The notes under the pieces are model-generated. The model ran no database searches. It had not been told where the DNA came from and was given only the letters and a program-made list of their open reading frames with translations. Source: an uncultured delta proteobacterium (GTDB lineage Bacteria > Desulfobacterota > WTBG01 > JAGOGO01). Taken from it: 64,000 nt of DNA. The position numbers and the translations under genes were made by a program. Each line of letters begins with the position of its first letter. The first letter of the stretch is position 1. This document shows, one piece after another, positions 23,405 through 42,673 of this stretch. The stretch is taken from the NCBI GenBank assembly GCA_963727835.1, contig CAVSIB010000016.1:20511-84510 (forward strand), read 5' to 3'.

Positions 23405-23484
23405 TTTGTCACCTTAAAATTAATTTTAATCAAATTTAGCTCCATAGAGCTCTTTGCTTTAGCCTCATAATAAAAAAATATAGT

Positions 23485-25172: not shown

Positions 25173-26106
25173 GATGGATCTTCCTCAAGAGGTATGGTGG
25201 TCGCCTCCTAACCGCCTGGAAAATTCTTCCGATGTACTCGCCCAGAACCCCGAGCGCAAAAAGCTGAGCACCGATAAAGCAGAAAAGTACGGCAAAGAGA
25301 GTAAATACTCCTTGTCCCGCCCATTGTGCCCCGTAATAAAATCGGAGAAACAGTATAAGCATCCCAAGCAGGAGACCCAGTATAGCAATCACGGTTCCTA
25401 CAAAGAAAAGAACCCGGAGAGGCAACAGAGAAAACCCAGTCACAAGATCAAGTTGCAAGCTGAAAAGCTTCAGGAGTGAGTACTTTGATTCTCCCGCACA
25501 TCTTTCTTTATGAAGAACAGGGATCTCTATTGGATTTCTCGCAAACAAGGTAGCTAAAGCAGGAATAAATGTCCGGTACTCAGGATTCGCCAGTATCGCT
25601 TCCACAACTTCCCGACTGTAACCCCGAAGCATACAACCGAAATCATCCAGAGATATGCCGGATATTTTTTTTACAAGCTTGTTCGTAAATTTCGATGCCC
25701 ATCTCCTAAAGAACGTATCTTGCCGGTTAATTCGGATGCTTCCCACGAGATCGTGCCCTTTGTTAAAGGCCTCGACTAACTTCGGAATCTCTTCCGGAGG
25801 ATTCTGCAAGTCAGCGTCGAGGGTAACGACAAACTCGCCTCGCGACTCAGCAAATCCAGCCAAAACCGCAGCGTGCTGTCCATAATTTCGGTTTAGCAGG
25901 ATCCCAATGACTTTACCCGGGTTCTGTTCGGCAGCCTCAGTAATAAGTTGGGCAGATCGGTCAATACTGCCATCATCCACCAGAATAATCTCGAAGGTCT
26001 TCCCCAGGTTGTTACAGGCTGTCAAGCAACGGCTGATAAGTTCCTTAAGGTTTGCCTCCTCGTTAAACGCAGGAATAACAACCGATAACAAAGGTGATGC
26101 ACTCAT
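25165..26106 (-). CDS. arnC: Undecaprenyl-phosphate 4-deoxy-4-formamido-L-arabinose transferase ArnC (GT2)
   Basis: LSVVIPAFNEE...IILVDDGS.DRS...NRNYGQHAAVLAGF...VVTLDADLQNPPEEIPKLV...GCMLRGYSR..TFIPALA...ESKYS, plus two C-terminal TM helices. Collinear with E. coli ArnC. Confidence 0.92.
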   Translation of the reverse strand: MSASPLLSVVIPAFNEEANLKELISRCLTACNNLGKTFEIILVDDGSIDRSAQLITEAAEQNPGKVIGILLNRNYGQHAAVLAGFAESRGEFVVTLDADLQNPPEEIPKLVEAFNKGHDLVGSIRINRQDTFFRRWASKFTNKLVKKISGISLDDFGCMLRGYSREVVEAILANPEYRTFIPALATLFARNPIEIPVLHKERCAGESKYSLLKLFSLQLDLVTGFSLLPLRVLFFVGTVIAILGLLLGMLILFLRFYYGAQWAGQGVFTLFAVLFCFIGAQLFALGVLGEYIGRIFQAVRRRPPYLLRKIHRG

Positions 26107-27254: not shown

Positions 27255-27364
27255 CAGTTTTTTCGTTACCGTCTGTTTTTCAGAACTTTTTTAACTTCAA
27301 CGCTTTCTGCAGCGGTCATTTTTCTTTTTTAGCACACCGCCGTTGGGAGAAGCAATACTTATTT

Positions 27365-29158
27365 TCACTTCGCGCTAAGAGCGCTCCATGCATAAAGACA
27401 ATAGGCACGACGATCCCCGAGATGCCAGCATCGAAGTACCTGAAGCCGCGAGCGAACGTCATCCGGAAGATTGGGAAAAACCGCTTCGAACACGAGAAGT
27501 TTTCCCCGGGGAGTTGTCACTATATAACGGTCAAGTTCTTCAGAGGTAGCTATGTTCTTTGGCACAAAACCGGTGTCATACGGAATAACTCCCATCGTCG
27601 TTTCATCCAGACGATAGCCGATAAGCTCCGGGAAAGTGGCTTTCATAGTCTGGAGGTCTCTGGTAAAATAATGGAGATTTTTGACACCATCTCCCAAACG
27701 GAAAAACAGCGAGCCACCACACACAAAAAAAATAAAGACCAAACAAGCGCAGACCAATCCCACTCGTGGAGAGCCGCTTTTCCAGAGACGCATACCATAC
27801 GTAGTCAATCCTATACTCATGATCAAAAGTAACCCAAAGAGCATGAAAAACATTAACGCGGAAGGTTTGGCCTGCAACACCGCATGAAACCGGGCGAAAA
27901 AGCTCGCGCCGCCGAAATAGGCGACCGGCATGGCCACCAAAGTGGCTAAAACAGACAAAGCTAAAATCATAAGCATAATGACGTGCGTAGCGTGATCAAT
28001 TTTTTGCGAGTATTCCCTTTTAGCGGTTGCCGCAACCCACGCGCCGATAACGGCGCCAAGCGGGGCAAAGAGCGGCAAAAGGTAAAGCATGCGCTTGGTT
28101 GCTGGAAGACTTAGAAGAATAACGCCAATTGGAAATATTGAAGCAAGGGAAAATAACGCCGGACCATTCCATTCCGAAGGCCAGCATTTGCGCCAAAGCC
28201 AGTGACCAACCGCGGGAAGCGCAATCACCCACGGAATAATTTCGCTCGGAAATTGCAGGTAGTACCAGAAAGGGTGACGGTGCCCCCCTTCGTGGTATTG
28301 TCCGAATGCCGGGGAAATACGACCAAATACGTTGGGGCGTATAAAGCCGTCGAAAAGAAGCTCTTTGCCCCCCCGAAAATAAAGCATTAAAGGCCACCAC
28401 AGGCACAAAGCCAAAAAAATAACTATGCCCGGAATGTGCACCCACGAGCGAAAGAAGTTCCATCGCCGTGTTATCAGAGCAGCCACAAACAACGGTACCG
28501 CAACAAGACCCGGGCCAACCGGCCCTTTAACAAGGAAAGCAAGTCCGCCGGCAAGATAGATCACAAAAATGCCCCATGCGGAAGGCTTGATCGCTTTCTC
28601 ATCATCTAAATCTTTTTTACTGAAGACAGCAACCACAAAGCCCCAATAGCCTAGCATGACAAAAAGGGCAAGCCAGGGGTCAACCACCACCCTATGGAAA
28701 TGGTGATAAAAACCAGACAGGGTGGCCGTCACGATGGTAGCCATAAGGCCGGCAAACGGGTTTGCAATCCGCCTAGCCACATCAAATACCAAAATCAGCG
28801 TCATAACTCCGGCAAGAGCACTCGTGCTGCGCGCCACTCCGTCTGAAACCCCAAAGAGGTGGTACATTCCCGCCATGGCCCACCAGTAAAGCGGAGGTTT
28901 TTCCAGGAATGGTTTTCCTGCCAAGGTGGGAACAACAAAGTCGCCGCTCACCAACAGCTCCCGTCCAACCTCGGCATCGCGGGGTTCATCAGGAGTCCAG
29001 AGCGCATGATCAAAGACTCCGGTGAAAGAAATGAGAAGGCTTGCGGCAAGTGCCACCAAAAACGCCTGCCGATTAGTCAAGACAGTTAACTTCTCAACAA
29101 GGCTACCGATCAGTTTTAAAATCCAACTATTCATTATAACACTCGATTTTTTAAACAA
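27365..29158 (-). CDS. ArnT/PMT-family (GT83/COG1807) membrane glycosyltransferase, paralog 3
   Basis: 597 aa. PDEPRDAEVGRELLVSGDFVVPTLAGKPFLEKPPLYWW is followed by ~12 TM helices and a C-terminal soluble domain. Confidence 0.8.
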   Translation of the reverse strand: MFKKSSVIMNSWILKLIGSLVEKLTVLTNRQAFLVALAASLLISFTGVFDHALWTPDEPRDAEVGRELLVSGDFVVPTLAGKPFLEKPPLYWWAMAGMYHLFGVSDGVARSTSALAGVMTLILVFDVARRIANPFAGLMATIVTATLSGFYHHFHRVVVDPWLALFVMLGYWGFVVAVFSKKDLDDEKAIKPSAWGIFVIYLAGGLAFLVKGPVGPGLVAVPLFVAALITRRWNFFRSWVHIPGIVIFLALCLWWPLMLYFRGGKELLFDGFIRPNVFGRISPAFGQYHEGGHRHPFWYYLQFPSEIIPWVIALPAVGHWLWRKCWPSEWNGPALFSLASIFPIGVILLSLPATKRMLYLLPLFAPLGAVIGAWVAATAKREYSQKIDHATHVIMLMILALSVLATLVAMPVAYFGGASFFARFHAVLQAKPSALMFFMLFGLLLIMSIGLTTYGMRLWKSGSPRVGLVCACLVFIFFVCGGSLFFRLGDGVKNLHYFTRDLQTMKATFPELIGYRLDETTMGVIPYDTGFVPKNIATSEELDRYIVTTPRGKLLVFEAVFPNLPDDVRSRLQVLRCWHLGDRRAYCLYAWSALSAK

Positions 29159-29392
29159 TTATAGCAAATTTGTTTCAAAGACTCTTAAAAATATTATTAA
29201 TAACTCAATGAAGATTAACGGTGCATTAATTAAAAATTAATTTTTCTTAAGAAATATATACTACGAAAGGTTATCTCTGGTGAACTGATGCTCGTTACGG
29301 ATGCGAGAAAAAATTTTTGAATCACCTTCGCGGGTTATAACAGTCAATGGTATCGTTTTTTTATCTGAGCCATGCCTTTTCCCTTCCAACCA

Positions 29393-30981
29393 CTACCGAG
29401 CAACAAAATGCACCAAGAGCAGAGGTATGGCATTATTTTTTTCCGAACTCTCATGGCTGAGAACCACCTCAAACATGAGTTGATCTTTTCCTAAAGCCGA
29501 AAGCATTTCATAGATGTCTTGAGCGACAAGAAAGTAACCTTGTTTTCTGGAAGCCAGCGCGGAAACAACCGCCCGGGGTTGTGGATCAAGATCCAACCTT
29601 CGAAACTCGCGTCGCGCGTAGAAAGGAAGAGCGTCTTTCGTTTGAGTGAAATATATCGGTTCATTCCTGGGCACAAGGCGGTTAATGCCCTGGGCAAAGC
29701 TAACAATGCTCCTCCGAGCGCTCACCGGTGGTTCAATCCAGCCAGAAATCGTGATTATACATAGCACGCCGGTTAAAACGAAAAGTTTGAAAGCCCTTTG
29801 AGGGCGTGAAAAAAGAAAACAGGAACCTATGGATGCTGGAATGGCAAGACAGCAGCCCACGGCAAGTGCCACCGTGAGGCTCGCAATTCCGCGGGAATAG
29901 ATAGAGAAACCGACCCCGAAAGAGAAGAGCACACAGCACAGTGAAAGCAACCCAGCCAAAACCCAGCCAAAACGATCTATATTCCTGCTCTCAATTATTT
30001 TCAAAAACTGCCTCAGCAGCACAGCCTCAATCACGCCCACGGAAGGAATCACCGGCAAGAGGTGATGGATCGGCTGTTTGGCACACGCTGCGAAGAAAAC
30101 GAAGTTTCCGGTCAACCACAAGGAACAAAACCGCAGTCGTGACCAGCTTTGCAATTTTCGTCCCCAGGCCGGCAAAAAAAGTGCCCCAATGCCGAAAATA
30201 CTCCAGGGGTAAGTGAACCACGGCCAATTGCCCAGGTGTTGGAAATAACTCCAGCCATTATGCTCCTGGCTCGGAACCACAGACCGTTTTACGTCAGCAA
30301 TCACCTGCAGCAGAAAGTCTTTTTCCATAACCAAAGCATTATCGGCCAGGCAAATGCGAACCCTATCACCATGAGCAGTCCCCACCACGGTCGCATCCGC
30401 ACCCCCAGCTGCCATTGATGCGACACCCATAGTTCCAGCACAATAGGTATACTCACAATAACCAGTGCCAACGGCCCCTTGAACAAGCAGGCTAACGACA
30501 GGCTAACATAAAACCCCCACCACGAAGCTGACCACGCTCGGCCCTCCTTTTTCCATACCAGCCACAACAGCAGAGCAAGGCCTGTAAAAAAGCTCAGCAA
30601 TAAATCTTGGCTCGGCGAATGACATTCGGAAATAAAATAAGGTGTGACGGCCAAAATCAGGGCGGCAATCCGTCCGGTTTCCCTGTCAAAAAGTCGGCGC
30701 GTTATCGCCCAGGCCACAAAGATAATCCCCAGGCCGGCGAGCGCAAACGGCAGTCGGAAGCCCAACTCATTTCGTCCCAGCAGCCGCATGCTTCCCACCA
30801 CGATCCAATCCGCAAACGGGGGTTTCAAAATCCGCGGTTTACCTTCCAATTGCGGCAACAGCCAATGGCCGTTGTCAGCTACATCCGCCGCCGTGCCGGC
30901 GATTCTCCGTTCACGCACATCCGCGATATCGCGCGACCCAAGAAAACAGAACACCGATACGATGCAGACGATGCCAACCAA
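29393..30981 (-). CDS. ArnT/PMT-family (GT83/COG1807) membrane glycosyltransferase, paralog 4; one frameshift in 30301-30430
   Basis: N-terminal ORF (30301-30981) has RERRIAGTAADV...HWLLPQLEGKPRILKPPFADW. The C-terminal ORF (29393-30430) is in another frame. Homopolymers at 30320-30324 and 30402-30406 lie in the overlap. This stretch is visibly more GC-rich than the neighbouring arn genes. Confidence 0.7.
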
Positions 30982-31641: not shown

Positions 31642-32532
31642 ATGTCGGTTGTTATACGGTTTTCTTCGCCAAATCTTGTTGCCGCTGGTTCAGTCGCCGC
31701 GAGTGTTGAAGAAAAGCTTTATTTTCAAGGGACAAACGGCCGGGCTGTTCTTTTAGTACATGGGCTTACCGGCTCGCCTTATGAGATGAAATATTTGGCG
31801 CATTTTTTTCATGAACGCGGCTATACAGTGTCGTGTCCCAGGCTGGCAAATCATGGACAGCCGCTGGATGTGTTAAAACAGACAAAATGGACTGAATTTT
31901 ATGATTCAGTCCGTAAAGCTTTTTTTGATTTAACATCCGGCCATGATAAGATTTTTGTCGCCGGATTATCGATGGGGGCGTTGTTATCGCTGGCCCTGGC
32001 TGAAGAGTATCCGGATGCGGTCGCCGGAGTAAGCTGTTTGTCACCGACTTTATTTTATGATGGCTGGAACGTTCCCTGGTCGCGAATCTTTTTGCCGCTG
32101 GTCTGCGCTACGCCGCTTAAAGATTTTTTTTATTTTAAAGAAGAACCTCCGTATGGTATTAAAAACGAAAAAATACGCCAGTTAATCCATAGGTATTACA
32201 GCCGGGCAACTTTGGATAACATGAAAGAAGTGGCAAGGCACGGTTATCCGTATTTTCCAGTGGTGTTATTAAACCAGCTAAAGTTATTGATCGTTTTTTT
32301 GCGTAAACGTTTTAATAAGATAATTACTCCGGTGCAGATGATCCAGGCTAGATATGATGACATGACCAGCCCTCGTAATGCACGGTTTATATATGACCGG
32401 GTCAGTTCAAAGAAAAAAGAGATCGTGTATTTGGAAGATTCGTATCATGTGATTACGGCTGATCAGGAGAAAGATAAGGTGGCTTATGTGATGGATGAGT
32501 TTTTTGGGAACATCCGAGGAGCCAGTTCATGA
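31642..32532 (+). CDS. Alpha/beta-hydrolase fold esterase/lipase-like protein
   Basis: VLLVHGLTGSPYEM, nucleophile elbow GLSMGA and a downstream D/H region. Its stop overlaps the next start (ATGA). Confidence 0.75.
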   Translation: MSVVIRFSSPNLVAAGSVAASVEEKLYFQGTNGRAVLLVHGLTGSPYEMKYLAHFFHERGYTVSCPRLANHGQPLDVLKQTKWTEFYDSVRKAFFDLTSGHDKIFVAGLSMGALLSLALAEEYPDAVAGVSCLSPTLFYDGWNVPWSRIFLPLVCATPLKDFFYFKEEPPYGIKNEKIRQLIHRYYSRATLDNMKEVARHGYPYFPVVLLNQLKLLIVFLRKRFNKIITPVQMIQARYDDMTSPRNARFIYDRVSSKKKEIVYLEDSYHVITADQEKDKVAYVMDEFFGNIRGASS

Positions 32533-33254
32533 TGCCGAAAAAAGCTGATGATCAGGAACTGAAACTTCTTTTGGAAGCAGGCAACCTTGATATTTCCGCC
32601 TGTGGGGTATTTTTTGATTTTGATAACACTATTACTTCCTATGACGTGCTGGACGAGATAATCAAGCGGTTTGCTGTAGACAGCGAGTGGGAGGAATTTG
32701 AAAAGGCCTGGGCTGAAGGAAAGATTGGTTCGCGTGAATGCCTTAAGGGGCAGTTAAAGTGTTTGCGGGCAACAAAAGACGATCTGATCAAGTATGTTTC
32801 TGAGGTAAAGGTCGATCCATATTTTAGCAATATAATTAACTTATTAGTGGTTGCCGGGATTGAGCCGGTACTAACCAGCGATAGTTTTACTTTTGTGATA
32901 AACCAGATATTGCGCTGTAACGGGATCAAAGGGGTCAAAGTCTACGCCAACCAATTGCGGTTTTCAGGTAAAAATCTGATCCCGGTGTTTCCGCTTTCCG
33001 ACCCGCTTTGCAGTAAATGTGCGCATTGCAAGAGAAACCGTTTGTCTGACAGCCGAAGCCGCTCGAGATTCCTGGTCTATGTCGGCGATGGGCGTTCGGA
33101 TATTTGTCCGGCTCAGGCCGCGGATTTGGTATTTGCGAAAGACAGCCTGATCCGTTATTGTGCGGATATGAATAAGCCTTGCGTTGAGTTTAAAGACCTC
33201 AGCGAAGTATATAACCATTTAAGGAGGCAGCCCAATGGCACAAACGTTAAGTGA
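32529..33254 (+). CDS. HAD-superfamily phosphatase, MtnX-like (DxDxT, with a CxxC..C cysteine cluster)
   Basis: FFDFDNTIT (motif I), GDGRSD (motif IV) and SKCAHCKRN. Resembles 2-hydroxy-3-keto-5-methylthiopentenyl-1-phosphate phosphatase-type HADs. Translationally coupled to its neighbours. Confidence 0.65.
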   Translation: MMPKKADDQELKLLLEAGNLDISACGVFFDFDNTITSYDVLDEIIKRFAVDSEWEEFEKAWAEGKIGSRECLKGQLKCLRATKDDLIKYVSEVKVDPYFSNIINLLVVAGIEPVLTSDSFTFVINQILRCNGIKGVKVYANQLRFSGKNLIPVFPLSDPLCSKCAHCKRNRLSDSRSRSRFLVYVGDGRSDICPAQAADLVFAKDSLIRYCADMNKPCVEFKDLSEVYNHLRRQPNGTNVK

Positions 33255-34623
33255 TAAAGAATTGCTTGAATTAGAAGCTAAATATTGTTCCTGGGGTGAT
33301 ACGGTCCACTATACCGAAAAGCTGGATATTTTTGAACGCTCAGAAGGTATTTATCTGTATGATAATCACGGTACGCAGTATTTGGATCTTCAGATGTGGT
33401 ATTCAGCGGCGAATTTCGGTTATAAAAATTCGCGGCTTAATGAGGCGTTAATAAAACAGATCAACACCTTGCCGCAGTTGGCTTGTCAATATTTGCATAA
33501 AGAAAAGATCTTGTTGGCGGCTAAGATAGCCCAGAATATGGAACAAACCTTCAATGTAAAAGGCAGAGTCCATTTTAACGTCGGCGGCGCTTCAGCTGTC
33601 GAAGATTCTATGAAACTAGTCCGTAATCATACCGGCAAGACGCTTGCCTTCGCGTTTATGGGCGGTTATCACGGCCGGACCTTAGGGGTATCCGCGATAA
33701 CTTCCAGCTATCGTTATCGTGAACGTTACGGCCATTTTTCCGATCGAGCAAATTTTATTCCGTATCCTTATTGTTTTCGTTGTTTCTATGAAAAAAAGCC
33801 GGAGTCTTGCGGCTTATACTGTTTAAAGCAATTTGAAAAACTTTTTGAGACGGAATACTACGCGGTAGTGAATAAGAAAAACAGCAATTGCGAATTCGGA
33901 GCGTTTTATGTCGAAGCGTTGCAGGGTACCGGCGGATATATCGTGCCGCCGATGAATTATTTTAAAGAACTCAAGAAGATACTGGACCAGTATAAGATCC
34001 TTTTTATTGATGACGAGGTCCAGATGGGTTTTTATCGTACCGGTAAATTATGGGCGATCGAACATTTTGGCGTAACGCCGGATGTTTTGGTTTGCGGCAA
34101 ATCTCTGACTAACGGGCTTAATCCGCTATCCTGTATCTGGGCAAAAGAAGAATTGATCTCGCCGAAAGTATTCGGGCCAGGTTCTACGCATTCTACATTT
34201 TCTTCGAACTCTTTAGGCACCACGGTCGGGTTAGAAGTCATGAAGGTGATCGAAGAATCGGATTTCGCGGTATCGGTTCCGGCTAAAGGAAAATATTTTG
34301 TCGAACGGTTAAAACAATTGCAGAAAAAATACCCCTATATCGGGCATGTCGAAGGTTTGGGCTTGGCGATCCGTGTGGAGATCTGCGAAAAAGACGGCTA
34401 TAAGCCGAGCAAAAAACTTACTGACGCGATATTTGACATCGGCTTAGGCGGCGAGTTGACTGCCGGCGGTAAAAAACGCGGATTGATCCTGAATGTCGGC
34501 GGGTATTATAAAAACGTGTTTACTTTGGTACCGTCATTGTACATCACTGAGAAAGAAATCGATACCGCGATAGAGCTGTTTGAAGAAGCTCTGCAAAAAG
34601 GTATCGCTCAAGTCTGCACTTAA
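33235..34623 (+). CDS. Class-III (fold type I) PLP-dependent aminotransferase
   Basis: GGYHGRT, FIDDEVQMGFYRTGKLWA and lysine context VCGKSL. Its 5' end overlaps the HAD gene by 20 nt. Confidence 0.8.
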   Translation: MAQTLSDKELLELEAKYCSWGDTVHYTEKLDIFERSEGIYLYDNHGTQYLDLQMWYSAANFGYKNSRLNEALIKQINTLPQLACQYLHKEKILLAAKIAQNMEQTFNVKGRVHFNVGGASAVEDSMKLVRNHTGKTLAFAFMGGYHGRTLGVSAITSSYRYRERYGHFSDRANFIPYPYCFRCFYEKKPESCGLYCLKQFEKLFETEYYAVVNKKNSNCEFGAFYVEALQGTGGYIVPPMNYFKELKKILDQYKILFIDDEVQMGFYRTGKLWAIEHFGVTPDVLVCGKSLTNGLNPLSCIWAKEELISPKVFGPGSTHSTFSSNSLGTTVGLEVMKVIEESDFAVSVPAKGKYFVERLKQLQKKYPYIGHVEGLGLAIRVEICEKDGYKPSKKLTDAIFDIGLGGELTAGGKKRGLILNVGGYYKNVFTLVPSLYITEKEIDTAIELFEEALQKGIAQVCT

Positions 34624-34690
34624 GGCGATATGCTGAAAAAGGAAACTCATCACTTACTTTTACGGTTATAGCGCTTTTATTAGCTACTGA

Positions 34691-34992
34691 TTTGGCGGAA
34701 ATGGCCGCGGAAGCATTGTTTACACAGATAAATTTCACGACTATGATTCTCTGGTATTCTGTGGTTACCGCCACATCAAGATTGACCATGGCAAGTACTT
34801 CGCTTCCGGCAAAGTGTATATTAATGACCTTGAAGGGTTCTGGACTTTCGCCAAAGAACGCCTAATGAAATATCATGGAGTTTCACAAAAGAAATTTCCC
34901 TTGTAGTTAAAAGAGCTGGAATTCCATTATAATAACAGATACAAAAATATGTTCGCTTTATTAACTCAATTACTGGCTGAGTTCGAACCAAA
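34691..34992 (+). pseudogene. IS1595-family (ISXO2-like) transposase C-terminal remnant with an internal stop
   Basis: Translation GSIVYTDKFHDYDSLVFCGYRHIKIDHGKYFASGKVYINDLEGFWTFAKERLMKYHGVSQKKFPL*LKELEFHYNNRYKNMF matches the conserved C-terminus of IS1595 DDE transposases. The N-terminal ~200 aa is not present. Confidence 0.7.
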
Positions 34993-35132
34993 TCTTTTAT
35001 AATCACCTAAAATTTGATATTGCATACAAAAATGAAATTCAGCGGCGTGGTTGAGTAGGTATAAAGGGGAAATCCCAGGTGCTATAATTTTCCGGTAAAG
35101 CTTTGTCAGCATCGGCATGAATAGAATCGAAA

Positions 35133-35885
35133 GTGAGCAGAGTGATGGGCACACGGGTCTTTGAGCGCACGGAACATTTCAACCCAGTAGTGGTCGCTCC
35201 CACATTCAACAATGTATCAACACTGATCCAAGTCCTCAATCGAATAATTGTACTCAATTTACCGCTGATCGTCGTTAATGACGGCTCAACTGACCGGACC
35301 GGGGATTTATTAAAAACCTGGTATCAGGATCAACCGCGCCGAGAGCATATCCATATTTTCGACCACATTCAAAATCGCGGCAAAGGGCAGGCTTTACGGA
35401 CCGCCTTTTCCATGACCGAGGGGCTTGGTTTCACGCACGCCGTCACCATCGACACGGACGGCCAACTCGATCCTGAACAAATACCGGATCTCCTTTTAGC
35501 CGCTTCGGCAAATCCCGATGCGCTGATACTTGGGTTCCGCGATGATACTGCTTTTGATTATCCCAAAAAAAGCAGAGTAGGCCGACGACTTTCAAATTTT
35601 TTCATCCGGGTGGAATGCGGCCTGTCTCTCGGAGACAGCCAATGCGGGTTTCGGGTGTATCCGATCAGGCTTGTCCAAAATATCACCTGCGGCGCGGGAC
35701 GTTACGGTTACGAGACTGAGATAATTGTGAGGGCAGTATGGGCGGGATGTCCGATTGTGGAAGTGCCGGTTCGATGCCGCTATTTTTTTGGCGAAAATCA
35801 CCGTACTCATTTTAAACCATGGCAGGACACATTCAGACACGTCAGCTTACACGCACGCATGTTAGCCAGACGCTTTTGCCGGTGA
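35133..35885 (+). CDS. GT2-family glycosyltransferase (polyprenyl-phosphate sugar transferase-like, ArnC/LgmA-like), soluble
   Basis: VVAPTFNNVSTL...VVNDGSTDRTGDLL...TIDTDGQLDPEQIP; GT-A DxD present. GTG start at 35133 or ATG at 35145. GC-rich codon usage distinct from the flanks. Confidence 0.75.
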   Translation: MSRVMGTRVFERTEHFNPVVVAPTFNNVSTLIQVLNRIIVLNLPLIVVNDGSTDRTGDLLKTWYQDQPRREHIHIFDHIQNRGKGQALRTAFSMTEGLGFTHAVTIDTDGQLDPEQIPDLLLAASANPDALILGFRDDTAFDYPKKSRVGRRLSNFFIRVECGLSLGDSQCGFRVYPIRLVQNITCGAGRYGYETEIIVRAVWAGCPIVEVPVRCRYFFGENHRTHFKPWQDTFRHVSLHARMLARRFCR

Positions 35886-36020
35886 CTCATACAAGGATAG
35901 TTAAAAAAACAGCGATGATTCACCACTGTTAAAGAACACCTGACGGCAGTGAGAGCAAACCCCCGCCAGATCCTGACAGGAATTTTGTCAAAATCCCCAT
36001 GACCGGAGAGCTTTGTCGCA

Positions 36021-36878
36021 GTGCACCAAAAATCGTGTGAATTAAAAAACCAGTATGCCATCAGTTGCAAAGAGCTGACATTCGCTCTCATCATCGTAGG
36101 GCTTTCATGTGCAGTGCGAATTCTTTATTCACTGCATTGCCAGCTCTGTAGCGATGAGCCGCAGCATCTTCATGTGATCTGGGGCTGGTATCATGGCCTT
36201 GTGCAATATCGGGATATCTTTGATAATCACATGCCGCTCTTTCATATACTCCTGAGCCCGCTTTTCTCGGCTATCGGCGAGCGGCCCACCCTCATGATCT
36301 GGATGCGTCTGGCGATGCTACCGCTCTTTGCCGTAATCATTTTTTGCATTTACGTGATTGGGGCGTCTGTTTTCAGCAAGCGGGTTGGTCTCTGGGCGGC
36401 AGTGTGGACAACGGTTTTTCCATCAATGAGCCTGTTTATTGAATTCCGAACCGACATTCTCTGGGCACTGTGCTGGTTTTCCTGTATCGCGATTCTGGTA
36501 AGCGGCCGGCTGACCATACGGCGTAGTGCGGTTGCCGGATTTTTTGCCGGATTGACGTTCGCAACCTCTCTTAAAACATCATTTCTGGCAGTCGCGTTAG
36601 CCGCTTCAATTGTCGCAACCATCCTCATAACCCGTAAATCTTACCATTGGGCCGGCCAAGCTTCTCAATTGATCCTAAAAGGTTGCGCATTTATTGTTTG
36701 CCTCTTAATTCCCCCTGCGGTGCTCGTTGCTTATTTTTACGCCCGCGGTGCTGCTGATTCGATGTATTACTGCGTGGTTGCGCATAATCTTGTCTTAGAA
36801 CGCGAATTTTTTTTTCGACATTTAATATCCATGAGCTATAGCAATATCTGTTTCATTGGTCTGTTCGGTAGGTCTTAA
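36021..36878 (+). CDS. Polytopic membrane protein, probable N-terminal portion of a GT-C (ArnT/PMT-like) glycosyltransferase
   Basis: ~8 TM helices. The first loop has DEPQHLHV...YRDIFDNHMPLF, resembling the GT-C DEx motif. Its 3' end overlaps the next ORF by 23 nt in a different frame. Confidence 0.55.
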   Translation: MHQKSCELKNQYAISCKELTFALIIVGLSCAVRILYSLHCQLCSDEPQHLHVIWGWYHGLVQYRDIFDNHMPLFHILLSPLFSAIGERPTLMIWMRLAMLPLFAVIIFCIYVIGASVFSKRVGLWAAVWTTVFPSMSLFIEFRTDILWALCWFSCIAILVSGRLTIRRSAVAGFFAGLTFATSLKTSFLAVALAASIVATILITRKSYHWAGQASQLILKGCAFIVCLLIPPAVLVAYFYARGAADSMYYCVVAHNLVLEREFFFRHLISMSYSNICFIGLFGRS

Positions 36879-37716
36879 GCGACTTGAACAGTCCGATACA
36901 AAGATGCTCCGGAAAACTTTCATCATGCTTCTGGCAGGGTTCTCGTTTGCAATGCTGCAACTCTGGCCTGTTCTGACTCAGCAGGACTATGCTGTCATCC
37001 TGCCGGCATTTCTGGTGGTTGGGGCTGCGCTAATCGAGTTTGCACAGGTATCCGCTTTAAAGCGCCGGCCTTTTTTACCTCTTCGCCAGCTCTTTCCGGT
37101 TATCATGGCCATCCAACTTGGTATGATGGCGATCTTTGCGCCCTGGCACAGCGCTCTGACATATAACCTTCAGCAATGGCGTGATGTGTTGCGCATGACC
37201 GATCCCGATCAAACGGTAATGGATCTTAAGGGTGAATTAATTTTCAGACCCCGGCCGTACTATTATGTTGTCGAAACATTCACCAGTAAAAGGATCCACC
37301 AAGGCCTGCTGAAAGATGATATTCCAGAGCAGATGGTAGCCCGCGGAACGTGTGTTGCAAACCATCCGATGGGCTGGGAAGGCCGCATGCCCGCGCGGAC
37401 CGGCGAATTCATAAAACGCAATTACGTTTCTGTTGGAACGCTGCTGGTGGCCGGGAAAGTCCTTGAAAGGACCTCTCCAACCGATCGCATTGAATTTGAA
37501 ATTGAATTGCCGGCACAGTATTCTCTCGTTTCCGCATCTGGACCAGCAACGGGTCTGCTCGATAACGAGCCGGTTGGGCAAACGGTTTTGCTCAAACCTG
37601 GACGACATTTTTACCAGCCTCGCACAACGGAAACTAAATTTGCTCTCGTGTGGTCACAGGCTCTTGAGCGAGGTTTCTGGCCCGTGAAAATAGTAAAACG
37701 GAATCCCCAGCCATGA
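36856..37716 (+). CDS. Membrane-anchored protein with C-terminal soluble domain; possibly the C-terminal half of the preceding GT-C gene
   Basis: Three N-terminal TM helices then a ~190-aa hydrophilic domain. The ORF-track start is TTG at 36856; the first ATG is at 36904. The stop overlaps the PIG-L gene start (ATGA). Confidence 0.5.
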   Translation: MVCSVGLKRLEQSDTKMLRKTFIMLLAGFSFAMLQLWPVLTQQDYAVILPAFLVVGAALIEFAQVSALKRRPFLPLRQLFPVIMAIQLGMMAIFAPWHSALTYNLQQWRDVLRMTDPDQTVMDLKGELIFRPRPYYYVVETFTSKRIHQGLLKDDIPEQMVARGTCVANHPMGWEGRMPARTGEFIKRNYVSVGTLLVAGKVLERTSPTDRIEFEIELPAQYSLVSASGPATGLLDNEPVGQTVLLKPGRHFYQPRTTETKFALVWSQALERGFWPVKIVKRNPQP

Positions 37717-38798
37717 CCGGGGCCATTTTTGACACCAACAGCAGGGTGCTGGTAATGGCGCCTCATCCTGATGATGAATCCCTTGCTGCTGGCGCCCTTC
37801 TCCAGTATGCACATCAAGCCGGCGCCCAAATCCGGATTCTGTTTATGACCAACGGAGAAAATAATCCCTGGCCTCAGCGCGTGCTGGAACGACGCTGGCG
37901 AATTCGCCCGGAAGATAAAATTCGCTTCGGCCTGCTCCGCAAAGCTGAAGCGCAATCCGCAATCGAGACCTTGGGATTAGATTGCGCCTGCGCTCAATTC
38001 CTTGGGTTCCCTGATCGGGGGATAACGCATCTCCTGCTCACCGCGGCCCCGCAGACAATTATTCCGGCACTGGTCCAGAACTTCGAACAATTCGGGCCCA
38101 GCCATATCGTTTACCCTTCGGGATTTGACCTTCATCCGGACCACAATGGCCTGAATGTGCTGGTGGAAATGGCTTTGCGGCAATCCAAAAACCACCCGCC
38201 ATCGGGTATGACCTATATTGTGCACCGGAGAAAACACAGAGAGAACGCTCCTGCTACTATAATACTAAACGTAACTCCTAGCCAGATACAGATTAAACGT
38301 GGCGCAATCCTCTGCCATACGTCACAGCTTACATTAAGGCCCTGGAGTCTTCTCGCCAGGGCAAAAGATACCGAGGAATTCCTTGCGGTCGAAAAACCCC
38401 AGGTTTATTGTCCATACCATCCCGTCCGTAACGCACAAATTCAGGACGACAGACTTCAGGCCGCGCTTGCCTTGCAACCTCACCCCAGCGCATTTGGCAA
38501 ACCTTACCTTTACCTGATAGGGATTTTGGAGAATGGAATGGTCAGCGCCTATAAATTGCTGTTCGATGCTAGCCCGATGCCGTGGTCCGGAATTTCCAAG
38601 GTCGAACTTGTTGATCTGGCCTCAAATTCAGTTCGTGGGCAGGGCCACTATCGCGGTAATTTTAAATCGGGATTGATTGAGATGGATTGTGAGCCGATTT
38701 CGCAGTTTCAACGAGTGTTTATCAAACTTAATCGGCCATTCGGTTTCTTTGATGAGGCAGGGTGGCGTGAATTGCCAATCGACCCATGCAAGGATTAG
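37713..38798 (+). CDS. PIG-L/LmbE-family N-acetylglucosaminyl deacetylase-like protein
   Basis: RVLVMAPHPDDESLAAGALL...ILFMTNGE...HPDHN is the LmbE/PIG-L zinc-deacetylase signature. 361 aa with an extra C-terminal domain. Confidence 0.8.
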   Translation: MTGAIFDTNSRVLVMAPHPDDESLAAGALLQYAHQAGAQIRILFMTNGENNPWPQRVLERRWRIRPEDKIRFGLLRKAEAQSAIETLGLDCACAQFLGFPDRGITHLLLTAAPQTIIPALVQNFEQFGPSHIVYPSGFDLHPDHNGLNVLVEMALRQSKNHPPSGMTYIVHRRKHRENAPATIILNVTPSQIQIKRGAILCHTSQLTLRPWSLLARAKDTEEFLAVEKPQVYCPYHPVRNAQIQDDRLQAALALQPHPSAFGKPYLYLIGILENGMVSAYKLLFDASPMPWSGISKVELVDLASNSVRGQGHYRGNFKSGLIEMDCEPISQFQRVFIKLNRPFGFFDEAGWRELPIDPCKD

Positions 38799-39180
38799 AG
38801 GCAGATCTGGAGAAAGCAGTATAATAGGCAACGACCCCACAGCTCTTTAAGCGGGTTAACACCGTATGCATTTATCAAAGAACAACAAAACAAAAACCTT
38901 ACTAAGGAAGAAACTGTCAATGTGAAACTGGCCCACACTACGGGGTAAGGTCAGGTTACGTATCCAGAATATCCCATGAGAAAACAAGGGCAAAAAATCG
39001 TATTAAAATTTTACCATTTGGTTTCTTGGTTACCTGCGTGTAATGAGGCCAAGCCCTGGCAACTATTTTACTCCATAAAATTATAACTGATTGTTTTTTT
39101 TATTTACTTGAACTAATCCATTGGCAACGTCTTTGTTTTTATGTAGTTTGCGCCGATAGTAACTGAGGATTAAGATAAGA

Positions 39181-40645
39181 TTAGTTTTTCTTAATGGTTG
39201 GTGAAATCCCGATAGGTTTTGTGGGAAGCGTAACGGTAAACGTGGTCCCCTGATGTAACTGACTTTTTACGTCAATGGTTCCGTGATGAGCCTTTACAAT
39301 CCATTGACAAATACTTAAGCCAAGACCTACTCCGCCCGATAGCCGGGAGCGGGATGTATCTACCCGGTAAAATCGGTCGAATATATGGGGTAAATCATCG
39401 CTGGGTATTCCTATGCCCGTGTCTTTTAGGACAACTGTTACCTGGCCTTTTCCCGGTTGTACTAGCAGGCTAATATTCCCTCCATTAGGGGTATATTTTA
39501 TGGCATTATCAATGAGGTTGCTGAAAAGCTGTTTCAGCTTTATACTGTCGAAATTTATCAGTACCTCCTCGGGTGCCGAAAGGGTAAAACTAATTTTTTT
39601 CTGCATTACCACAATATTGAAGGCCTCATAGAGTTCTTTAAGCAGTTCGGAAAAATTTAGATTTTCAATCTTGAGGCTTGCCTTGCCTTCGTCTGCTTGA
39701 GAGAGAATGAGGAGATCATTAACGAGCTTGATCAAGAAATCAAGCCGTTCGAGGTTATTAGTCAGAGCCTCTTGGTAGTCTTCTGAAGACCGTTTTCGAG
39801 AAAGCAAAACTTCAGTCTCCCCCTTAAGCGAAGCGAGCGGCGTGCGCAACTCATGGGCGGCATCACCAGTAAACCGGGAGAGTTTTTCAAAAGATTCTTC
39901 CAGACGTTCCATCATCTGATTGATAGTCGTGACCAGCCTATCCAGATCATCGCCAGTCCCTTGGAGGGGTAGTCGTTCGCTCAGGTTGTTGGCCGTTATT
40001 CGTTTGGTAGCTTCCGTTATTTTATCAATAGGCTTCAGGGATTTGCCGGGATAAGAACCACCCCCCGATGGAGCCAAAAAACAAAGCCAGAAAAAATGCG
40101 ATAAAAAGATGTTCCCGAAAATTTTCGATGCTTTTGCGCATGGTGCGGAGATGGGTTGCGATTTGAACAACATATTTTAATTCCCCACCTTCCCTATAAA
40201 AATAAGTGCAGAGGCGAAAAGGGGTTGTCCCGTGGTGATAAACATTCAATGTTGTATTAATAGGTTTTTGATAACTAACATGATCTAAAAAAACTTTGGG
40301 GAAAGAAAGATCCGACAATGTTGCGGAGGAAAAAATGATCTTACCTTTTTGATCGAGCACCCGGAAAGCGATCGGGTAATACCTGTGATTAGAAACAACC
40401 TTCTCATAGTCTTTTAACTGATCATTGAAACTTCCTGATTTTTTAATTCCCTCCTTTATGATTTCTTGCGCCTCATCCGCAAGCATCCGGTCAATCTCCT
40501 TAAGGAGATTCCGACGAAGGCGATAGTCTAAAAATCCAAAGATGAGAATTATAATGGTCAAGAACGTTATCGTGTACCATAACGCCATCCTTACATCGAG
40601 TCGTTGATAAAACCTAATCCTTCTCTTTAAAAACATAACCAACAC
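39181..40645 (-). CDS. Sensor histidine kinase (2 TM + periplasmic loop, HisKA, HATPase_c), one frameshift
   Basis: The N-terminal ORF (40025-40645) has two TM helices flanking a ~150-aa loop. The C-terminal ORF (39181-40173) has H-box AAHELRTPL and the N/G1/G2 boxes (NLIDNAIKYT, DTGIGI, GGVGLGLSI). A C6 run at 40061-40066 sits in the 40025-40173 overlap. Confidence 0.8.
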
Positions 40646-41288
40646 CCTTAACAGTATGAATTAGTTTCGGAGAGAAGTCGTTGTCAATTTTGGAGCGGAG
40701 ATGATTTATATGAACATCAATTACATTGGTCATGGTGTCAAAATTATAATTCCAGATGTGCTCAGAAAGCATGGTGCGAGTTAGCACCTGGTCAGGATTC
40801 TTCATAAAATATTCGAGTAAAGCGTATTCTTTTGGGGTAAGGTCAATAAGAGCATCCCCCCGCCGGACCTCACGGCTGATTTGATTCAAACTTAAATCAG
40901 CATACTGTAAAGTTGGAGATACTACCTCTTTGCCCCGACGCAGTATAGCCCTTATTCGCGCCAACAGTTCATAGAAAGAAAAGGGCTTAACGATATAATC
41001 GTCAGCCCCTAAATTTAATCCATTCACTATACTTCCTTCGGAATCTTTTGCAGTGAGAAATATGACTGGAGTAGTATTTCCCCTTTCTCTTAAATGAAGA
41101 AGAATTTTATCCCCGCTCAAAAGAGGGAGCATAATGTCCAAGATAATGAGGTCATAATTTTCTTGGGTTGCCAAATGAAGACCATCTTCGCCATTTTCCG
41201 CAATGTCCACGCTAAAAGAGTTTTCTTTTAACCCTTTTTCGATAAAACGGGCCACATTTTTATCGTCTTCGACTAATAAAATTTTCAC
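40614..41288 (-). CDS. OmpR/PhoB-family response regulator (PmrA/BasR-like)
   Basis: MKILLVEDD...DLIILDIMLP..SG...PVIFLTAKD...GADDYIVKPFSFYELLARIRAILRR, plus a winged-helix C-terminus (TPKEYALLEYF...VKGVGYVF). Confidence 0.9.
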   Translation of the reverse strand: MKILLVEDDKNVARFIEKGLKENSFSVDIAENGEDGLHLATQENYDLIILDIMLPLLSGDKILLHLRERGNTTPVIFLTAKDSEGSIVNGLNLGADDYIVKPFSFYELLARIRAILRRGKEVVSPTLQYADLSLNQISREVRRGDALIDLTPKEYALLEYFMKNPDQVLTRTMLSEHIWNYNFDTMTNVIDVHINHLRSKIDNDFSPKLIHTVKGVGYVFKEKD

Positions 41289-42308: not shown

Positions 42309-42393
42309 TGCCGAAGTGGCGGAATTGGCAGACGCGCTAGGTTCAGGGTCTAGTGAGGGTAGCCTCGTAGGGGTTCAAATCCCCTCTTCGGCA
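42309..42393 (+). tRNA. tRNA-Leu (anticodon CAG), class II with long variable arm
   Basis: GCCGAAG...CTTCGGC acceptor stem with discriminator A, D-arm GCGGAATTGGCAGACGC, anticodon stem-loop CTAGG-TTCAGGG-TCTAG (anticodon CAG), a long variable arm and T-arm GGGGTTCAAATCCCC. Confidence 0.85.
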
Positions 42394-42673
42394 TGGTAAA
42401 CTTTCCGATAGTTAATTTTTTTCGTTCTTCTGAAAAATATCTTTTTTCCTCCATGCAAAAGAAAGAAGGTTTACTTTACTCCTTTTTTTAATTTTTTTCT
42501 ATACTCTTGACATTATTTTTATATTAGATTAAAAAGTTACCGATCAAAAAATGGCTAAGGCCATTTAAATTTTAGAGGTTGATAAATAAGTATTAAGATA
42601 TCTAAAAAGATATAGAAGAAAATAAAGAGCACAACGTAATAGATAAGATTTCAGAAGTAAAGGAGAAATTAAG

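Follow-up and report, generated by a model that had tools for sequence, protein, structure and literature searches.

A predicted aminosugar-glycosylation cassette with a PIG-L/LmbE-type deacetylase in a Desulfobacterota-type bacterium

Positions 35133-38798 of the window (the whole 64,000-nucleotide stretch analyzed here) encode a soluble GT2 glycosyltransferase, one GT-C membrane glycosyltransferase and a PIG-L/LmbE deacetylase. This cassette is a member of a widespread, uncharacterized family with a deacetylase unlike that of the known lipid A aminosugar systems. We put at roughly 0.6 the probability that it is a horizontally acquired extracytoplasmic aminosugar-glycosylation system that works like Arn with a different deacetylase, and its most likely role is to decorate the cell envelope with a free-amine hexosamine. 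An earlier note on this DNA had likened it to Arn and to the glucosamine-type lipid A systems. That reading is partly supported: the pathway logic stands, but homology at the deacetylase step does not. If the present reading is true, the cassette follows the same logic as Arn, Lgm and Flm/NaxD with a non-homologous deacetylase.

Proteins encoded by the cassette

The open reading frames given in the earlier note (35133-35885, 36021-36878, 36856-37716 and 37713-38798) all match the ORF list. The first (plus strand) encodes the GT2, a protein of 250 aa (PF00535; E-value: 9e-21) with no predicted TM segment. Its true start is probably the ATG at 35145, giving 246 aa; the start is called there in contig L002, which is 98% identical. 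Of the two motifs previously described, DTDGQ is present, but the supposed DDGSTD is actually NDGSTD (VVNDGSTDRT); an alignment of homologs shows both of these, and motifs downstream of them, to be invariant. The best solved relatives are ArnC (9hwj, 8vxh and 9bhc; E-values: 2e-7 to 6e-7) and then the Dol-P-Man synthase 5mlz, while the top NCBIfam matches (AglJ, PgaC, PpgS, ArnC and Dol-P-hexose transferase) are all far under their cutoffs. This protein is predicted to be a polyprenyl-phosphate HexNAc synthase. It lacks the DUF2062 membrane domain of its closest outside relatives (L082, L004 and L038). The 135-nt gap that follows the gene without overlap (35886-36020) is the position where some relatives encode this domain, and it contains several small indels relative to L001 and L002.

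The next two ORFs fuse, as had been suspected, into a single gene (36021-37716, plus strand) once an extra base is removed. A three-way DNA alignment places the insertion, a C outside any homopolymer, at 36836; over 5.3 kb compared with L002, no other 1-nt indel falls in coding sequence. The gene is intact both in L002, which is from the same population, and in L001. A T9 run at 36807-36815 was ruled out as the frameshift site, since stops continue in the downstream frame up to ~36833. The 23-nt overlap of the two ORFs is due to the frameshift and not to translational coupling. Of the ATGA overlaps proposed throughout the cassette, only that at the GT-C/PIG-L junction (37713-37716) exists, the GT2 and GT-C genes being separated by the gap described above. 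Because both the GT-C and a neighboring kinase are frameshifted, the module may be inactive in this genome, or the assembly may be in error.

The corrected protein (564 aa) has approximately 11-12 TM helices, together with a C-terminal domain of ~190 aa that is periplasmic. The acidic motif reported in its first periplasmic loop is present as SDEPQHLH, and the DE is invariant among aligned homologs. A Pfam search that identified PF00535 in the GT2 and PF02585 in the deacetylase gave no match to this protein. By structure comparison it is a GT-C by fold, all of the structurally matched GT-C transferases use a lipid-linked donor, and ArnT is among the top three matches. It is not detectably of the ArnT family by sequence. 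Profile comparison with the ArnT encoded in the window gave no significant similarity, so homology offers no ground for an ArnT-like acceptor. Weak CBM-like matches, probably in the periplasmic domain, would suggest a glycan acceptor as opposed to lipid A phosphate. That the protein is instead a PMT/GT39-type protein O-glycosyltransferase, putting hexosamine on periplasmic or outer-membrane proteins and not on LPS, is very improbable.

The last gene (37713-38798, plus strand) encodes a cytoplasmic PIG-L/LmbE-fold zinc deacetylase of 361 aa (PF02585; E-value: 4e-22), for which neither a signal peptide nor a TM segment is predicted. The APHPDDE motif is present as reported, and the Zn-ligand and general-base motifs are intact (H18 P19 D20 D21 and H141 P142 D143 H144, all invariant), as are the invariant clade motifs GENNPWPQR and FGFFDEAGW. 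The structure model (pLDDT 90.9) matches the fold of all LmbE enzymes, with 16-27% identity to the solved members. A C-terminal beta domain (aa ~226-361, ~135 aa) is clade-specific and is found elsewhere only in PIG-L::GT2 fusions. This protein is predicted to be a polyprenyl-P-HexNAc de-N-acetylase.

Gene linkage and the proposed pathway

In reference genomes, PIG-L is directly downstream of GT-C in 47 of 79 loci and near it in 9 more, in nine diderm phyla. A GT2 adjoins in 11 loci of this set, and in 6 it forms one protein with PIG-L. Of the 47 loci where PIG-L adjoins, 31 lack a GT2 within 3 kb. Approximately 17 PIG-L::GT2 fusions (598-632 aa) occur among the best 120 PIG-L homologs, and the order GT2-GT-C-PIG-L is also found in L004, L009, L038 and L082. 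ArnE/F-like EamA genes adjoin GT-C - PIG-L::GT2 on the same strand in L008, L034, L067, L077 and L003 (on both sides in L008 and L034), and Methylophilaceae operons have added ArnE/F-like flippase candidates. This comparative evidence links GT2, GT-C and PIG-L functionally.

The best NCBIfam matches of the deacetylase are BshB2 and BshB1 (E-values: 2e-13 and 2e-12, respectively), as might be found for an ordinary enzyme of bacillithiol/mycothiol biosynthesis or detoxification lying beside unrelated glycosyltransferases. This explanation is effectively refuted: the protein scores 47-50 bits against cutoffs of 182-195, its structure is no closer to any one LmbE enzyme than to the others, its clade motifs and C-terminal domain are missing from BshB and MshB, and both the conserved GT-C adjacency and the GT2 fusions stand against it.

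For the lipid carrier, sugar, order of steps, acceptor and regulation of the cassette, we infer the following model. The soluble GT2 would move HexNAc (most likely GlcNAc) from a UDP-sugar onto undecaprenyl phosphate (Und-P) at the inner face of the cytoplasmic membrane, and the cytoplasmic PIG-L/LmbE enzyme would strip the N-acetyl group to form Und-P-HexN. This lipid-linked aminosugar would then be flipped; the window's cassette contains no flippase gene, and relatives have ArnE/F-like EamA pairs or the DUF2062 membrane domain of GT2. Finally, GT-C would pass the free-amine hexosamine to an envelope acceptor in the periplasm, LPS being a plausible one (lipid A phosphate, core or other glycan), with expression presumably under the adjacent OmpR-type two-component system. 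GlcNAc/GlcN as the sugar, lipid A as the acceptor and a "cationic" resistance trait are likewise inferences. One support for the model is that the GT2 has its closest relatives among polyprenyl-phosphate GT2s (ArnC and DPMS).

The same three proteins could be connected by a GPI-like logic. Eukaryotic PIG-L de-N-acetylates a lipid-anchored GlcNAc (GlcNAc-PI) at the cytoplasmic face before GT-C mannosyltransferases use Dol-P-Man from DPM1 (a GT2). By analogy, the GT2 would make a polyprenyl-P-hexose (e.g., mannose or glucose) for GT-C, while PIG-L would de-N-acetylate a GlcNAc carried by the acceptor lipid or glycan before export. This is unlikely: the neighborhoods contain no recurrent GT4/PIG-A-like enzyme to make the GlcNAc-lipid acceptor, and the ArnE/F-like flippase candidates near the module fit a charged lipid-linked aminosugar. 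In addition, the beta domain joins PIG-L directly to GT2 in the fusions, for which product hand-over is the simplest explanation.

Relationship to known systems

The Arn pathway (ArnC, ArnD, ArnE-F and ArnT) leads from Und-P-Ara4FN through Und-P-Ara4N to lipid A. Here too, Und-P receives an N-acylated aminosugar from a GT2, the amine is freed by a deacylase at the cytoplasmic face, and a small-membrane-protein flippase and a sugar-transferring GT-C in the periplasm complete the pathway. The cassette is similar in this logic, in the structural relatives of its GT2 (ArnC) and GT-C (ArnT among the best three) and in the ArnE/F-like genes that accompany some of its relatives. Unlike Arn, it has neither an ArnA/ArnB sugar-nucleotide branch nor a flippase, its GT-C is not detectably an ArnT-family member by sequence, and its deacylase has the PIG-L/LmbE fold in place of the CE4-type ArnD (the window's own ArnD, at 20480-21400, has PF01522).

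The closest functional analogues are FlmF2-NaxD-FlmK of Francisella/Acinetobacter (GalN) and LgmA-D of Bordetella (GlcN). In these systems, a GT2 makes Und-P-HexNAc, which is deacetylated to Und-P-HexN (LgmC is probably NaxD-like) and used by an ArnT-like GT-C to modify a lipid A phosphate (+161 Da). NaxD deacetylates Und-P-GalNAc prior to transfer to lipid A and belongs to the YdjC superfamily (PMC11279074), which is unrelated to PIG-L/LmbE; the cassette also differs in that its acceptor may be a glycan. In Bordetella, the lgm locus modifies lipid A with GlcN (+161) by means of an ArnT ortholog (PMC11401268, PMC11895810).

Three-component periplasmic glycosylation systems (GtrA/GtrB/Gtr*, CsbB/GtcA/YfhO and GT136 pentofuranose) likewise combine a polyprenyl-P-sugar synthase, either a GT2 or another enzyme, with a flippase and with a GT-C that modifies a finished envelope glycan. 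Some of their GT-Cs carry C-terminal carbohydrate-binding modules (PMC11127046), comparable to the weak CBM-like matches described above. Unlike the cassette, these systems transfer the sugar unmodified, without lipid-linked deacetylation, a PIG-L partner or a PIG-L::GT2 fusion. The cassette contains no GtrA-type flippase.

The deacetylase shares its fold and Zn site with PIG-L/LmbE (CE14) enzymes such as eukaryotic PIG-L, MshB, BshB, teicoplanin Orf2*, chitobiose deacetylase and DnpA, the last of which (PA5002 of P. aeruginosa) is encoded among LPS-core genes. It is set apart by its two clade motifs and beta domain, falls outside the BshB, MshB and Mca equivalogs, and is genetically coupled to GT-C and GT2; we know of no such coupling for MshB, BshB, Orf2*, chitobiose deacetylase or DnpA. 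A further parallel is mycobacterial PpgS (Rv3631), a short soluble GT2 that makes polyprenyl-P-GalNAc; this is then deacetylated, and a GT-C (Rv3779) moves GalN to arabinogalactan. To our knowledge, no deacetylase of this pathway has been identified. The NCBIfam PpgS model matches the cassette GT2 near full length (E-value: 1e-10) but at 41 bits against a cutoff of 370, and the host differs in being a diderm Desulfobacterota-type bacterium.

Origin, neighbors and integrity

The GC enrichment claimed for the cassette is real and moderate: GC is 50.3% (0.503) and GC3 0.522, versus 43.3% (0.433 +/- 0.032) and 0.443 +/- 0.053 in the 36 other genes. The largest tetranucleotide deviation in the window is at 35001-38000 (z = 3.1), and the offset of +7 GC points exceeds the cluster-minus-flank offset of any of 32 reference loci (mean +0.011 +/- 0.020, max +0.057). 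GC of the arn block is likewise elevated (0.488). The IS1595-family transposase remnant reported on the left is confirmed (~34709-35002, plus strand; PF12762, E-value: 3.6e-14). Only the C-terminal half is left (77-153 of the 153 profile positions), interrupted by a stop codon at 34904-34906, and it marks the left border: homology to the relative L001, which has RND efflux genes upstream instead, begins directly to its right at 35011. A second IS fragment (38799-39010, plus strand), previously overlooked, directly follows the PIG-L stop and encodes the C-terminal end of a transposase of the rve type (IS3/IS481-like) (rve_3 PF13683, E-value: 6.6e-7; the last 19 profile positions, 49-67 of 67). 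It separates PIG-L from the sensor kinase in the window and L002 but is missing in L001, and was inserted in the window/L002 lineage only.

The best reference-genome homolog is only 38-39% identical, and the host Obg falls among Desulfobacterota-type MAGs. Compositional foreignness, IS remnants and distant homologs count for transfer, and the cassette appears to be horizontally acquired. The acquisition is not recent, because the cassette occupies the corresponding position in a relative (93.7% nucleotide identity) without the right-hand IS fragment.

Convergent with the cassette is a sensor histidine kinase gene (39181-40645, minus strand) split into two ORFs (39181-40173 and 40025-40645) by a 1-nt insertion near 40045 relative to L001. 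It is paired with an OmpR-family response regulator (40614-41288, minus strand) that is 49.6% identical to the L082 regulator and has a dN/dS of 0.12 against L001. Homologous pairs adjoin the module in ~10 loci, often as RR-HK-GT-C-PIG-L: kinase homologs adjoin the GT-C/PIG-L pair in ~10 loci of several phyla and in L082, and regulator homologs (E-values: 1e-59 to 1e-73) in L013, L022, L024, L055 and L056. This two-component system is probably the regulator of the cassette. Two-component systems also control the hexosamine systems: PmrB controls A. baumannii NaxD and, as Marr et al. (2008) state in their title, BvgAS controls the Bordetella ArnT ortholog (PMC11279074, PMC11401268, PMC11895810). 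Upstream of the cassette and, as described before, opposite to it, the arn locus (minus strand) encodes ArnB, ArnC, ArnA, ArnD, an ArnE/F-like protein and ArnT.

The cassette may be a decaying remnant that no longer modifies the envelope, with a frameshifted GT-C and kinase and a truncated GT2; we consider this a serious possibility, at somewhat less than even odds. The insertions at 36836 and 40045 are both outside homopolymers, the DUF2062 domain has been lost relative to L082, L004 and L038, IS debris lies on both sides, and the arn block contains at least one further GT-C gene divided between frames. The dN/dS of the cassette in this lineage (0.31-0.71, versus 0.11-0.17 in neighboring housekeeping genes), together with the frameshifts, suggests relaxed selection or decay. 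These values are still below 1, however, the GT-C is intact in L002 and L001, and a single-base assembly error is possible, given one sequence only. Decay would concern activity in this genome and is compatible with the aminosugar pathway proposed for the family. PIG-L::GT2 fusions likewise carry a short GT2, and a short GT2 is therefore not degenerate in itself.

Genes of the cassette

The cassette at window positions 35133-38798 (plus strand) encodes a GT2 glycosyltransferase, a GT-C membrane transferase split between two reading frames and a PIG-L/LmbE deacetylase. The earlier note had described it as a second undecaprenyl-phosphate (Und-P) aminosugar module on a GC-rich island; overall this observation is confirmed with small corrections, and nothing that the note had named as grounds for rejecting it was found. 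The interpretation is upheld in part, with the lipid A target, the GlcN identity and a role in cationic resistance being putative.

The GT2 (35133-35885, plus strand, 250 aa) matches PF00535 (E-value: 9e-21), the family for which the note had suggested a search. The motifs NDGSTD and DTDGQ are invariant in its homologs (alignment A5), and with PF00535 they give it the GT-A catalytic domain of polyprenyl-phosphate GT2s. DTDGQ had been read correctly before, but the other motif is NDGSTD rather than DDGSTD. The top PDB sequence matches are three ArnC structures (E-values: 2e-7 to 6e-7), followed by Dol-P-Man synthase. The five best NCBIfam matches are AglJ, PpgS, ArnC, a Dol-P-hexose transferase and, at rank two, PgaC, all far below their equivalog cutoffs; apart from PgaC, these models describe polyprenyl-phosphate sugar synthases. 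No transmembrane segment such as anchors polyprenyl-phosphate GT2s was found in the 250 residues. A C-terminal DUF2062 membrane domain, for which the literature searched has no functional account, is carried by the GT2s of the closest outside relatives (homologous loci L082, L004 of Thermodesulfovibrionales and L038 of Phycisphaerales) and is absent from the window GT2. The short soluble form occurs in the window's lineage, in L009 (Desulfocapsaceae) and likewise as the GT2 domain of PIG-L::GT2 fusions. It is therefore no proof of degeneration, as the fusion proteins carry it too.

After a gap of 135 nt, the GT2 is followed by two hydrophobic ORFs, ORF2 (36021-36878) and ORF3 (36856-37716), both on the plus strand and both lacking a Pfam match. 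Joined, they align end to end with single proteins of 560-600 aa (at least 684 homologs), the closest being P0001 (96% identity) and P0002 (89% identity). Two separate membrane proteins are thus ruled out, and the fusion into one GT-C upon frameshift correction that the note had put up for checking is borne out. An intact GT-C with the same three genes is present on two metagenomic contigs, L002 (98% DNA identity over window positions 34335-39671) and L001 (93.7% from 35011 onward). According to a three-way alignment, the window has a single additional base at position 36836, which is not part of a homopolymer. The T9 homopolymer at 36807-36815 was considered as the frameshift site and rejected, since the frame downstream of it contains stops until approximately 36833 and the alignment puts the base at 36836. 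Over 5.3 kb, no other 1-nt indel separates the coding sequence of the window from that of L002, so the assembly is not generally error-ridden. The base may be a real frameshift or a single assembly error, one sequence being compatible with both.

The joined protein has approximately 11-12 hydrophobic helices up to residue 375, followed by a soluble domain of approximately 190 aa, which is the topology of GT-C enzymes. D45 and E46, within SDEPQHLH after TM1, are invariant in 35 sequences and form the acidic first-loop motif of this class; the first periplasmic loop contains the invariant block DEPQHLH...YRDxFDNHxP. The protein also matches solved GT-C enzymes in structure, and its GT-C fold class is certain. 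At the sequence level, the window protein is at the margin of PMT_2. The corrected GT-C has no Pfam match even at E ≤ 1, and its homologs just pass PMT_2 (27.6-36.5 bits; cutoff 26.1). The two halves have no NCBIfam ArnT match, a PDB sequence search with the GT-C family profile gave no matches, and the profile shows no significant similarity to the ArnT of the window (hhalign probability 0.1%) or to a paralogous GT-C. ArnT (GT83) membership by sequence, judged by PF02366/PF13231 or PRK13279 together with detectable homology, is not supported. The Pfam and hhalign results do not support the ArnT-like identity proposed in the note, and a recent origin as a paralog of ArnT or of the other GT-Cs in the arn locus is likewise rejected.

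The third protein (37713-38798, plus strand, 361 aa) has the domain PF02585, as the note had predicted (E-value: 4e-22; 79.5 bits against a gathering cutoff of 28.2). The ATGA overlaps claimed for the cassette are found at the GT-C/PIG-L junction only, the GT2 and ORF2 being separated by the 135-nt gap. The catalytic residues H18, D20, D21, H141, D143 and H144 are invariant in 38 sequences and comprise the zinc-ligand His-Asp-His set and the general-base Asp (AHPDDE ... HxDH). Two further invariant blocks, GENNPWPQR and a C-terminal FGFFDEAGW, are specific to this clade. PIG-L contains no hydrophobic segment and is therefore cytoplasmic. Its structural model (pLDDT 90.9) combines an LmbE alpha/beta domain with a C-terminal all-beta domain of approximately 135 aa. 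All 42 PDB structure matches have the LmbE fold (E-values: 1e-10 to 1e-7), and the N-terminal domain is no closer to any one solved LmbE-fold deacetylase than to the others (16-27% identity). The NCBIfam scores for BshB2, BshB1, MshB and Mca (50.3, 47.1, 28.7 and 21.6 bits) are far below the respective cutoffs (195, 182, 224 and 277), so PIG-L is not one of these thiol-pathway enzymes. The grouping with thiol-type LmbE proteins that would have spoken against the aminosugar module is thus not found. When the beta domain was searched alone against 1.84 billion representative proteins, it turned up in two settings only, C-terminally in proteins of this PIG-L clade and between PIG-L and GT2 in fusions. 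Truncation of the C-terminus by an IS insertion was rejected, as the protein ends where its homologs end. An exact look-up of the window PIG-L returned no record.

Homologous loci in other genomes

A scan of 185,579 species-representative genomes identified 520 GT-C relatives. No close copy of the cassette was found among these genomes, the best identity being 38-39%. The best 79 of the 520 loci were examined. They represent nine diderm phyla: Verrucomicrobiota (45 loci), Pseudomonadota (9), Desulfobacterota, Binatota and Acidobacteriota (5 each), Hydrogenedentota (3), Nitrospirota (2), and Planctomycetota and Eisenbacteria (1 each), with three loci unclassified. PIG-L is directly downstream of GT-C in 47 of the 79 and nearby in 9 more; in 6 of the 79, the sequence is too short to judge adjacency. 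In 11 of the 79 loci, a GT2 homolog is encoded within 3 kb, and in 6 it is fused to PIG-L; such PIG-L::GT2 fusions (598-632 aa) account for approximately 17 of the 120 best PIG-L homologs. The order GT2 - GT-C - PIG-L recurs in L004, L009, L038 and L082. A synthase, a deacylase and a GT-C are encoded together in the window, and the triad or a fusion is present in many loci.

ArnE/F-like EamA genes adjoin the module on the same strand in Methylophilaceae and Nitrospirota loci (L003, L008, L034, L067 and L077). In L008 (compare L083), the order EamA - GT-C - PIG-L::GT2 - EamA is a complete set of synthase, deacetylase, flippase and transferase. Operons of this type are found in L008 (2488-7183), L034 (6572-11847), L067, L077 and L083 (2285-9851), the last with additional upstream genes for an EamA::DegT aminotransferase fusion, a FemAB-like protein, ACP and KAS. 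The Methylophilaceae and Nitrospirota operons look like a larger aminosugar or lipid modification locus. In the Chthoniobacterales loci L007, L035, L041, L051, L066 and L070, two or three tandem GT-C paralogs are found beside one PIG-L or none, which suggests several transferases with a common lipid-linked donor.

An OmpR-type response regulator and a sensor histidine kinase (39181-41288, minus strand) are convergent with the cassette. Approximately ten loci from several phyla have a homologous pair (response regulator E-values: 1e-59 to 1e-73), frequently in the arrangement RR-HK-GT-C-PIG-L on one strand. L082 also has such a pair. This locus, the closest outside relative, has the order HK - RR - B12-binding radical-SAM enzyme - GT2::DUF2062 - GT-C - PIG-L (4600-15639); LptF/LptG (an LPS export permease) is convergent and downstream of the module.

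Proposed pathway and known systems

Decorating the envelope with free-amine sugars is the main route by which Gram-negative bacteria reduce their surface charge and withstand polymyxins and cationic peptides. To our knowledge, the characterised aminosugar routes all follow one scheme with ArnD-type or NaxD-type deacylases.

The best-supported reading of the module, on evidence that is computational throughout, is an Arn-like scheme, to which we assign a probability of roughly 0.6. The GT2 would make Und-P-HexNAc, and the cytoplasmic PIG-L would strip off its acetyl group. The lipid-linked aminosugar would then be flipped, and the GT-C would hand HexN to an envelope acceptor. Control of expression probably lies with the adjoining two-component system. 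What is inferred here comprises the lipid carrier and its sugar, the sequence of the steps, the acceptor and the regulation. GlcNAc is the probable sugar, since GlcNAc-type substrates are those on which the characterised LmbE-family deacetylases known to us act. No dedicated ArnE/F-type flippase gene was found in 35133-38798; an ArnE/F-like gene is present in the arn locus of the window (20087-20470, minus strand). Lipid A is one possible acceptor, and a rather unlikely one. Weak CBM-like matches of the GT-C, probably to its periplasmic domain, give a weak hint of a glycan acceptor rather than lipid A phosphate.

The proposed scheme is that of the Arn pathway, but ArnD belongs to PF01522 (CE4) and the cassette deacetylase to PF02585 only. 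NaxD of Francisella and Acinetobacter, which deacetylates Und-P-GalNAc, is a member of the YdjC superfamily (PMC11279074), so neither an ArnD nor a NaxD homolog fills this step in the cassette. In the lgm locus of Bordetella, GlcN (+161 Da) is added to lipid A via an ArnT ortholog (PMC11401268, PMC11895810). The resemblance to hexosamine lipid A systems that the earlier note had seen therefore holds for pathway logic but fails for homology at the deacetylase step (PF02585 as against YdjC/CE4). Pseudomonas aeruginosa DnpA (PA5002) is a PIG-L family deacetylase encoded among LPS-core genes; unlike the window PIG-L, it has no GT-C partner (PMC13552734). In the literature searched for links of PIG-L/LmbE proteins to undecaprenyl, GT-C, ArnT or lipid A, no enzyme of this family coupled to a GT2 and a GT-C is described; matches from Actinoplanes and C. 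difficile were irrelevant.

More tentatively, at odds that we put a little short of even, the triad may constitute an undescribed and widespread envelope-modification pathway of environmental diderms, among them Verrucomicrobiota, Nitrospirota, Desulfobacterota, Acidobacteriota, Binatota and Methylophilaceae. An LmbE enzyme with a dedicated beta domain would de-N-acetylate polyprenyl-phosphate-HexNAc, and a dedicated two-component system would govern the transfer of the free-amine hexosamine to LPS or a different surface glycan. If so, a third kind of deacetylase would have been recruited to this task, independently of ArnD (CE4) and NaxD (YdjC), and PIG-L would parallel in bacteria the de-N-acetylation of GlcNAc-PI in eukaryotes; one scheme would have evolved at least three times with unrelated deacetylases. 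Soil and freshwater phyla, whose envelopes have hardly been studied, would commonly have the pathway (520 GT-C relatives in the 185,579 genomes), and a large clade of proteins that carry no annotation beyond "LmbE family" or "glycosyltransferase family 39" would gain a function. Bioinformatic markers would be the FGFFDEAGW domain, the fusion of PIG-L with GT2 and the conserved pairing of GT-C and PIG-L genes. The culturable Methylophilaceae relatives, with flippase candidates in their operons, would offer an experimental starting point.

Origin and present state of the cassette

Foreign origin, like the logic of the module, stands on several independent lines of evidence. The cassette genes have a GC content of 50.3%, compared to 43.3 ± 3.2% for 36 other genes of the window, and the tetranucleotide deviation of 35-38 kb is the window maximum (z = 3.1). 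The distinct composition that the note had proposed to check by such a profile is thus present. In 32 reference loci, the GC offset between cluster and flanks is only +0.011 ± 0.020 (maximum +0.057); the window value of +0.07 exceeds all of these, and the excess is therefore not intrinsic to the genes. The L082 cluster matches its flanks at approximately 50% GC. The GC content of the arn block is also raised (0.488 versus 0.433).

Remnants of mobile elements lie at both borders. The IS1595 transposase remnant noticed earlier is found on the left at approximately 34709-35002, where synteny with L001 breaks. On the right, an rve-type (rve_3) fragment at approximately 38799-39010 is present in the window and L002 and absent from L001, and so arrived after the cassette. 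With the composition, these remnants uphold the horizontal acquisition suggested in the note. The cassette is not absent from relatives: L001 (93.7% nucleotide identity) and L002 (98%) both have it in this position; because it is common to the window and L001, it is older than the split of these 93.7%-identical lineages. No tRNA or att-type integration site was found at the cassette. The only tRNA gene of the window, tRNA-Leu (CAG) at 42309-42394 (plus strand), is separated from it by 3.5 kb that include the two-component system and ribF. The window's Obg groups with uncultured Desulfobacterota-type MAGs ("Deltaproteobacteria", Thermodesulfobacteriota, Syntrophales), its best named relatives being 67-72% identical. 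The dS of the cassette relative to L001 is 0.06-0.13, and that of flanking housekeeping genes is 0.17-0.25; this could reflect a more recent exchange between lineages or an effect of composition.

In this lineage, the three cassette genes have dN/dS values of 0.31-0.71, compared to 0.11-0.17 for the response regulator, ribF and obg. Single-nucleotide insertions are found in the cassette GT-C (36836) and in the sensor kinase (40045). The module is constrained across the wider family and looks relaxed here, possibly inactivated, and this copy may be dead. A promoter and terminator scan of 34600-39250 gave nothing above shuffled expectation. Many genes of L001 (ENA ERZ25039477 contig_107017) are fragmented, among them an RND pump in three pieces and OEP, kinase and proB in two pieces each, and several of the breaks coincide with homopolymers. 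The contig probably comes from an error-prone long-read assembly, and its gene breaks should not be taken as pseudogenes.

The arn locus (18331-30981) is on the minus strand, opposite in direction to the cassette as previously noted. It encodes ArnB (26103-27254), ArnC (25165-26106), ArnA (21401-23404), ArnD (20480-21400; PF01522), the ArnE/F-like protein and ArnT (18331-19989), interspersed with three PMT_2-type GT-C genes (23485-25172, 27365-29158 and 29393-30981, all on the minus strand). Including that of the cassette, the window has five GT-C genes. One GT-C of the arn block (29393-30981) is split across two frames according to tblastn, and another (23485-25172) may be split as well, with a 283-nt ORF overlap. 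In the window, apparent frame breaks are confined to genes for envelope modification or regulation; they could result from relaxed selection on surface modification or from assembly errors. In this genome, a second, predicted aminosugar system was acquired beside a full arn locus, and selection on it now seems relaxed.

The arn block and the IS1595 remnant are separated by a three-gene operon (31642-34623, plus strand), which encodes an alpha/beta hydrolase, an MtnX-like HAD-IB phosphatase and a class-III aminotransferase, the last with a sub-threshold NCBIfam match to the aminophosphonate lyase PbfA (E-value: 6e-70; 236 bits against a cutoff of 525). L001 lacks this block at the same position. 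Just downstream of ArnT is a gene for a small LAB_N membrane protein (17651-17962, minus strand; PF07578, E-value: 7e-31). In a 938-aa fusion protein (14227-17043, minus strand), a GT4 glycosyltransferase domain comes after two Kdo/WaaP-type LPS kinase regions, an unusual LPS-core architecture.
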